64,000 nt of DNA from Eledone cirrhosa (taxonomy: Eukaryota), in NCBI GenBank assembly GCA_964016885.1, contig OZ024740.1:226486001-226550000 (forward strand), given 5' to 3'. Positions within the stretch are counted from its first letter, which is position 1, and every line of letters begins with the position of its first letter. The translations under genes and the position numbers were made by a program. This document shows positions 50,441 to 51,555 of this stretch, in pieces. Below the pieces are notes generated by a model, which had not been told where the DNA came from, did not search any database, and was given only the letters and a program-made list of their open reading frames with translations.

Positions 50441-51295
50441 AATTATATTACGATTTGGAAATATAATTATAAGCAATATAACTTTAAATCAACATAATTT
50501 TTAAAATATTATAGAATATTTCAAGTTATAATTTTAAAATAATAATATGTTTAATAGATTTAGTATAAAAATTTTATTCGTATATTTAACTTAATTTTAT
50601 ATCCATAAGAGAAAGAAAAAGAAACTTTCAAAAGAGAAACTTTCAAAAATAGGAGAAACTATCAAATAATATTTTCCCCTTTTAAGCGCTTTCAGTATGC
50701 TTCTCTAGAAGAGTTTTTTATATTTATTTATATTTAGGAAGAAAAATTTTTTTTACTTGAGAGTTTAAGCAGTCAAAATGAAGGAATCTAATGATTTATC
50801 GGTAGGTTCAATATATTAATAGAATTAATTAATTAATTATATATTACATTTGAAATTTATATTTAAACGTTGAGTTCACTCTATGTCTGCAGCAACTGAA
50901 TAAATTGTTCCTTAGGTTCAAATAAATAAAGGAATAAACAAAACATATACTTAGCTCCCACATCAAGACGTAAAATATCCACGTATAGATCGTACTATCC
51001 GTTAGGGTATAACGTGGGGCTGTAATACAGGAAAGTTTTGTGCAATTTATGTTTACAAGCCGAAATTGCCTCAGATTTTTTGATTAAGATGTGGTCTGTG
51101 GCGTAGAGTATTTCCAGTACGATCTATACGTGGATATTTTACGTCTTGATATGGGAGCTAAGTATATGTTTTGTTTATTCCTTTACTTATTTGCATAGCG
51201 AACGTTTTCACGAACCAAAGTATCGTCTTCCTGTCTTCCTCCGGTTGCAACGTTTTTTTAAATATCCACTTCTGCGTTTACAGATTGACTTTGTT

Positions 51296-51346
51296 AGTTT
51301 GAGAAGAACCCGTTAAGGGTGAAAGCAACGATTCTTTGCTTAAACT
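51296..51346 (+). ncRNA. HHR-like motif, family B (variant core)
   Basis: agttt GAGAAGA accc gttaa gggt GAAA gcaa..ttgc TT aaact; copies with a CAGAAGA core at 49297-49347 (-) and 57801-57851 (-). Confidence 0.55.
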
Positions 51347-51555
51347 TTAATCTGTTATTTTAATAAATATTTGCTCTACGGTTCTTATATATTTGATATA
51401 TATTTATCCTTATCGAGCCCTCTTTGGATTTTAGTCTTCAAATTTATTATTATTACTATATATATATATATATATATATATATATATATATATATATATA
51501 TATATATATATATATATGTGTGTGTGTGTGTGTGTGTGTGTGTGTGTGTGTGTGT

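Follow-up and report, generated by a model that had tools for sequence, protein, structure and literature searches.

One arm of a composite Penelope-like insertion in Eledone cirrhosa lacks, to the nucleotide, a 763-nt GT-AG intron that another copy of the same family retains, and this arm is almost certainly derived from spliced RNA. The insertion lies at 49273-51455 of the window (the whole 64,000-nt stretch of DNA analyzed here). Read on the minus strand between its two (TA)n runs, it consists of the reverse of the intron-less arm (S), an inner piece of the direct arm (D5), a 951-bp piece of another family (C), and the outer piece of the direct arm (D3). Alignment of S (51116-51455, +) with the intron-containing copy (copy B of family B, 57692-59050) matches 51116-51443 (+) to 57704-58792 (-) minus the 763-nt segment, that is, to B 58792-58712 and then from 57948 onward. 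Exon 1 of S (51116-51198, +; B 58792-58712) is identical to copy B at 78 of 81 aligned bases and starts at the AG of the ORF stop codon, which is also a 2-nt overlap with the opposite arm. The exon-exon junction, GCATAG/CGAACG, falls at 51198-51199 (+), where exon 2 opens with C in place of the G of copy B; the same joint is present in two sequencing runs (X1 and X22). Exon 2 (51199-51366, +; B 57948-57781) matches copy B at 162/168 positions and the direct arm at 159/167. It is followed by a tail of ~70 nt plus (TTA)n and then a (TA)n run (51367-51455, +; 88/89 vs. copy B); the tail is found on the S arm only and is absent from the direct arm.

Copy B itself reads, on the minus strand, ORF end, exon 1, intron, exon 2, and tail, followed by a (TA)n run (57692-58945). 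Its ORF end carries the pattern CDLC..E..N..CKH with a stop codon at 58793-58791; exon 1 ends at 58712, and the intron occupies 57949-58711 (-). The 5′ piece (58946-59050, +) runs opposite to the orientation usual in the family, and 13 nt are duplicated where it turns round (joint 58933-59050). These 105 bp code for the residues that immediately precede the ORF end, and the uninverted order is seen in reads of all four sequencing runs considered below. In LINE-1 twin priming, primers from both target strands give rise to an inverted 5′ piece; copy B has this geometry, its 5′ inversion being twin-priming-like in layout within one RNA. At its 3′ end the intron holds a tandem duplication of ~140 bp (57930-58066 and 58073-58206, 80% alike) with a second acceptor-like site at 58092 (11/14 pyrimidines); no joint to this site was found among the joints listed (15 of 114).

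The donor of copy B (GCATAG/GTAAGT, 58711) is the sole AG/GTRAG in the 1214-nt element. The acceptor (TTCCCGTTCTTTGCCAG/GGAACG, 57949) possesses the best pyrimidine tract (12/14) among the 12 acceptor-like sites listed, and a branch-like TTAAT motif is located 40 nt upstream of it. A consensus donor, a pyrimidine tract with a YAG acceptor, and a branch motif are all present for a GT-AG intron. A second donor (AAG/GTACGT, 58679, -) lies 32 nt inside the intron and, paired with the same acceptor, defines a segment of 731 nt. The sequence-only reading had bounded the 763-nt segment by the sites at 58711 (GCATAG/GTAAGT) and 57949 (a polypyrimidine tract plus CAG), and both its positions and its sequences are right; its further statement that S loses the segment exactly at GT-AG is borne out by the alignment of S to copy B, which puts the junction at 51198/51199.

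As AG(G) is common to both ends of the intron, a microhomology deletion had to be ruled out. DNA deletion or polymerase slippage between short repeats could mimic splicing; the microhomology exists (AG/G at both ends; TTTGCATAG vs. TTTGCCAG), and Penelope copies often carry deletions of this type (PMC3846280). Distinct deletions of at least 100 nt within the element were therefore graded with a simple consensus score of our own making. A donor of 8/9 is paired with an acceptor of 12/14 in three of the 392,694 possible deletions, and among those with at least three bases of microhomology in two of 10,172. Both of the latter are the joints (763 and 731 nt) found in the sequencing runs, and they are two of the three best splice pairs. 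Chance or microhomology deletion was rejected on these counts, and the probability that deletion or slippage produced the junction is negligible. The 763-nt segment is a genuinely spliced GT-AG intron, seen in several forms.

Four of 24 sequencing runs (X1, X4, X6, and X22) were placed on copy B. X22 represents raw genomic DNA from another sample and study, prepared as a reduced-representation, biased library; the kind of library behind X1 is not on record, and this run may stem from the window's own sample. Among the joints listed (15 of 114) just three skip more than 100 nt, and all three end at the 57949 acceptor. The exact 763-nt joint has a summed depth of 347.5 in X1 (one contig), which, like the other depths given here, does not equal copy number. 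The S-type joint, with C as the first base of exon 2, reaches a depth of 154 in X1 (two contigs) and occurs in three X22 reads with three different starts, while the 731-nt joint from the donor at 58679 has a depth of 440.2 in X1 (two contigs) and one read in X22. In a fourth form (depth 23.8) the end of exon 1 has diverged. The four joint reads of X22 compare with a depth of ~1,080 beside the donor and ~1,190 beside the acceptor. No spliced joint from X6 or X4 is found among the joints listed (15 of 114). X6 does hold an inversion joint, 57971-58296, both ends of which are intronic; an inverted piece is therefore not necessarily a spliced one. Spliced forms are thus present as DNA, in several versions, and are rare; since only a small fraction of the family is spliced, keeping the intron is still the norm. 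An assembly artefact as the source of the junction in S was rejected, the S-type joint being present in three raw reads from another sample.

These joints also bear on where the spliced sequence came from. An older intronless subfamily could have supplied the RNA for S, in which case the junction would be a mark of lineage and not of mechanism. The depth of the C-type junction (154 in X1, plus the three X22 reads) fits this, and because that value is far above the 6-30 of the eight long X1 contigs listed, the S-type junction may be multi-copy and an intronless source copy is possible. In addition, S carries six exon-2 differences of its own, from both copy B and D3. Two of these complete hammerhead-like stems, for which reason the changes look like a source haplotype more than decay; none of the six, the junction base apart, is among the variants listed (40 of 384). 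Against a single intronless lineage stand at least four junction forms (exact, C-type, second donor, and diverged exon end), from which it follows that splicing reached the genome repeatedly; moreover, depth is not copy number, and the X22 reads may come from the same locus in another animal. We consider this subfamily distinctly unlikely as the explanation. Even less probable, to a degree that makes it a very long shot, is that S was inserted with its intron and lost it later by recombination with a spliced cDNA. An identical, exact junction would be expected from such an event, for which reverse transcriptase and spliced RNA are both available and which is established for intron loss generally. 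It would, however, require a second event for each copy, and retrotransposition of spliced RNA is the shorter path.

The direct arm is interrupted. Its inner piece, D5 (50919-51117, -), corresponds to B 58913-58717 (199 nt, 96.5%) and comprises the ORF end and exon 1, departing from family B ~5 nt short of the donor. It abuts S head to head, the two sharing the 2-nt overlap (AG) and forming a 76-nt inverted repeat with a 121-nt spacer. The outer piece, D3 (49273-49967, -), corresponds to B 58477-57777 (701 nt, 97.3%); it keeps the last 529 nt of the intron, the acceptor, and exon 2, is without the tail, and runs into (TA)n. Between the two lies the foreign piece (49968-50918, -), which is on the same strand as the direct arm and displaces 239 bp of family B, the donor included. 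It consists of an ORF end (LNLRNNLFSCCRH... at ~50844-50921) and a 3′ region, and alignment found no second copy of it within the 64-kb window. Since its ORF end is of the same kind as that of family B, it likely belongs to a third Penelope-like family, an assignment made from the C-terminal motif alone. Compared with the missing 239 bp of B intron it gave an alignment score of 57, which one of 200 shuffles equaled, a weak likeness of low complexity. A short microhomology (TTG) is seen at its 5′ side, and its own 3′ end is not visible. The piece may have entered the direct arm by a template jump or as a later insertion. The sequence-only reading had described a direct-orientation arm (49275-49966) that keeps the acceptor along with the intron's 3′ part; both are indeed there, the latter as 529 nt, but that arm is not continuous with the piece beside S, the 951 bp of another family between D3 and D5 having been overlooked. 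No target-site duplication is readable, and the (TA)n runs at both ends would hide one. Just to the left of the insertion a 450-bp direct repeat is found (47629-48070 and 48734-49189, 93% alike), each copy of which follows a (TA)n run.

The outer ends of the insertion coincide with the two common 3′ ends of the family. Among the ends listed (24 of 1,156), loose read ends occur at 57777 (2337 X22 reads, then TA repeats) and at ~57707 (831 reads); D3 ends at 57777 and S at ~57707. All three 3′ ends in the window, as well as the loose read ends, abut (TA)n. The position of the two outer ends on two common 3′ ends favors one insertion with two independently primed ends.

Allele sharing gives a different accent. 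S and D5 have three exon-1 differences from copy B in common over 77 nt, one of which is a minor allele (104 of 894 X22 reads), whereas S and D3 share none over the 168 nt of exon 2 (Fisher p 0.03, post hoc). The overall divergence of the two pairs is alike (2/77 for S-D5 vs. 9/168 for S-D3, p 0.51). The shared alleles hint that S and D3 may come from different sources. An arrangement in which S and D5 form one all-spliced (or palindromic) head-to-head insertion, with C and D3 arriving later and removing the 3′ end of the direct arm, would make the unspliced neighbor of S a coincidence. D5 stops short of the donor and S has alleles in common with D5 and none with D3, both of which suit this sequence of events, as does the cleavage of AT-rich DNA by a Poseidon protein where its own ORF meets the pLTR (PMC11167929). 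It requires, on the other hand, a deletion plus a same-family, same-strand, collinear replacement, and the placement of D3 at the tail-less end and of S at the tail end is the pattern of one insertion; we regard it as unlikely, if worth keeping in mind. Because D5 ends before the donor it cannot be called spliced or unspliced, and it may itself derive from spliced RNA. S is very probably the inverted partner of D5. D3 and S may stem from a single event, but the third element intervenes and D5 is mute on splicing. The sequence-only reading had treated the whole as one insertion, with which the outer ends agree in fitting the one-sided tail pattern, while the third element splits D3 from the S side.

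A GT-AG intron is removed from sense RNA only; sense RNA must therefore have been reverse-transcribed somewhere in the history of S. Folding back of the direct arm in its current form cannot have given S, which lacks both the intron and the C piece and possesses the tail. Plain template switching between two sense RNAs was rejected as well, since it would give a head-to-tail tandem and not an inverted arm. For a head-to-head arm, either the opposite target strand would have to prime as well or a cDNA would itself have to be copied. The earlier proposal of two RNA templates, one unspliced and one spliced, survives as to the GT-AG intron and to S being a spliced retrocopy in the form of an inverted arm, while the template switching it invoked has the wrong geometry. 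An origin from two templates is plausible, and the splice state is a candidate for the marker of inverted pLTR formation that this proposal envisaged.

We surmise, with about even confidence, that both nicks primed synthesis, each on an RNA of its own (one still with the intron, the other spliced or intronless), and that the cDNAs were joined through AG. The target would have been (TA)n, both strands of which would prime. One nick would prime at the short start site, with an RNA that contains the intron as template, giving D3, and this cDNA would then run through the family C piece and the family B ORF end, either by template jumps or with C inserted later. The other nick would prime at the tail site, with an RNA that was spliced or had an intronless source, giving S, and the two cDNA ends would finally be joined through AG. 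Both the S and the D arm begin at 3′ start sites; they are thus overlapping copies, unlike the LINE-1 case, where the two parts are halves of one RNA stretch.

A variant with a single RNA is also conceivable. An RNA with two terminal repeats could have served two priming events, one at its unspliced 3′ repeat and the other at a start site inside its spliced 5′ repeat; the latter cDNA would then have ended by run-off where transcription begins (58792). In Penelope and in Chlamys-3_cRei the start site is located in the pLTR shortly before a 5′-UTR intron (PMC2377424, PMC8557442), and internal initiation has been demonstrated in vitro (PMC11167929). S is purely non-coding and starts 81 nt before the donor, and copy B exhibits the twin-priming-like 5′ inversion. 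Yet 9 of 168 positions distinguish S from D3, the inversion joint of X6 (57971-58296) is wholly intronic, and the C piece is left unaccounted for, with 58792 being a putative start site; such a doubly primed RNA is in our view quite improbable. Returning to two RNAs primed from both nicks, the corresponding general rule would be that inverted pLTRs arise by second priming, on the other target strand, from a pool of spliced mRNA or from the spliced 5′ repeat of the same RNA, and direct arms from intron-containing RNA. As a rule this is doubtful.

The copies of family B in the window contain only the last ~85 codons of the ORF, and neither the reverse transcriptase nor the region of the CxCX5C linker is present in them. 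The 51-amino acid ORF end has no Pfam family, a search for longer homologs returned six candidates, none at E 0.01, and a 22-nt exon-2 motif had no matches in metagenome and viral contigs. The ORF end does align with that of family A (E 2e-6 and 2e-4), a truncated Hydra-like ORF at 59255-60585 (-) with a CxCX5C linker (59601) and an asparagine-rich stretch. An upstream frame of family A gave a weak match to RVT_1 (E 0.0027, below the cut-off), and the RWK and DKT motifs of the Hydra clade were not found in the truncated family A frames. On the 5′ side of family A is a short inverted repeat pair (60603-60676 and 60968-61044), and the element is related to a palindrome at 24355-24530. The endonuclease end of family B has CxxC and CxH around a conserved E and N (CDLCAAE...LNKKSEAISACKH), which is a feature of the Hydra clade, and 5′ truncation, an inverted terminal copy, and a one-sided tail are all present as elements of the Penelope-like layout. 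Family B behaves like an endonuclease-bearing Penelope-like element, which by its motifs and TA targets most closely resembles the Hydra clade and is a candidate member of it.

A hammerhead-shaped type I motif is found in exon 2 at 51296-51346 (+) in S, 57801-57851 (-) in copy B, and 49297-49347 (-) in D3. Its three stems pair fully in S, where the core reads GAGAAGA vs. the canonical CUGANGA; in copy B and D3 the core is CAGAAGA (A for U4), with one to two core mismatches overall. None of the three window copies possesses a canonical core. Rfam hammerhead models gave no match in 44000-64000 or 51190-51440, and the motif folds no better than its shuffles (z-scores -1.05 to 0.07). In X1, X6, and X4, no other part of the element is covered as deeply as this hammerhead-shaped stretch.

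Other repeats in the window were aligned as well. Two insertions of other Penelope-like families are flanked by inverted terminal repeats, one at 51866-52142 and 53312-53610 with an ORF at 52513-53172 (-), the other at 26371-26837 and 29392-29894 with ORFs at 28336-29327 (-); in neither do the arms differ by anything the size of an intron. No intron-like gap was found in five other inverted or repeated pairs and one direct pair of the window, the largest gaps being 15-22 nt and mostly simple repeats, so there is no second case within it. The window also has five almost perfect, short-looped palindromes 130-206 bp in length (2702-2836, 7996-8125, 24355-24530, 42792-42992, and 45407-45612), possibly fold-back remnants of mobile elements. 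Decayed non-LTR retrotransposon copies with reverse transcriptase frames, 74-82% alike, occur at 19493-21772 (-), 31043-31951 (+), and 36256-37407 (-); these are presumably RTE-like.

Endonuclease-bearing Penelope-like elements are described as having a one-sided tail and an inverted 5′-truncated copy (PMC8557442). Like the Hydra clade of that paper, family B is inserted into (TA)n, and its neighbor, family A, has the CxCX5C linker. By comparison the Hydra clade has a tail of 30-40 nt and a canonical hammerhead core, whereas the tail here is ~70 nt and the core of family B is non-canonical. For Hydra elements, neither an intron nor a spliced copy in the genome is described in the available text of PMC8557442. 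A spliceosomal intron within the terminal repeat, upstream of the hammerhead, is known for Penelope of Drosophila virilis (PMC2377424) and for Chlamys-3_cRei (PMC8557442), the latter with two isoforms (introns of 398 and 751 bp). In both elements most genomic copies retain the intron (PMC2377424, PMC8557442). Splicing is thus seen in their RNA and retention in their DNA, whereas here spliced forms from two donors are present in DNA, one of them as an inverted arm. The significance of intron retention in Penelope-like elements has been called unknown (PMC8557442).

To explain head-to-head arms and intron retention, Arkhipova et al. 2013 (PMC3846280) proposed self-priming on antisense RNA, with unspliced sense RNA not excluded. 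The insertion resembles that model in having head-to-head arms with an inner palindrome (the 76 nt around a 121-nt spacer). It differs in that an antisense template explains retention, while the spliced arm found here needs sense RNA to be copied at some step. Frangieh et al. 2024 (PMC11167929) reported that the purified Poseidon protein of Anolis cuts and extends both target strands; in vitro it has AT-rich targets and uses two internal RNA start sites, which bound the tail. Poseidon belongs to another clade and its start sites lie in its ORF, whereas there is no ATG in exon 2 plus tail here; the available text of that paper deals with neither inverted arms nor splicing. Searches of the literature turned up neither intron-less genomic copies nor spliced inverted pLTRs, although these may be mentioned in the field's founding papers from 2003-2006 (Arkhipova 2003 Nat Genet, Arkhipova 2006, Evgen'ev and Arkhipova 2005). 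The available text of PMC4209133, PMC3681739, PMC6431247, PMC13282606, and bioRxiv 10.64898/2026.07.22.740005 contains no spliced genomic copies.

On the present basis of one composite locus and junction counts, the presence in the genome of exactly spliced copies from two donors indicates that spliced sense RNA of these elements gets copied, if rarely. The spliced inverted arm is hard to reconcile with fold-back priming on antisense RNA. In a high-copy family such as this one, splice state against arm orientation becomes countable. If inverted pLTRs do arise by second priming on spliced RNA and direct arms from intron-containing RNA, the splice state would mark the priming strand, and inverted ends, the one-sided tail, and intron retention would all be accounted for without an antisense template.
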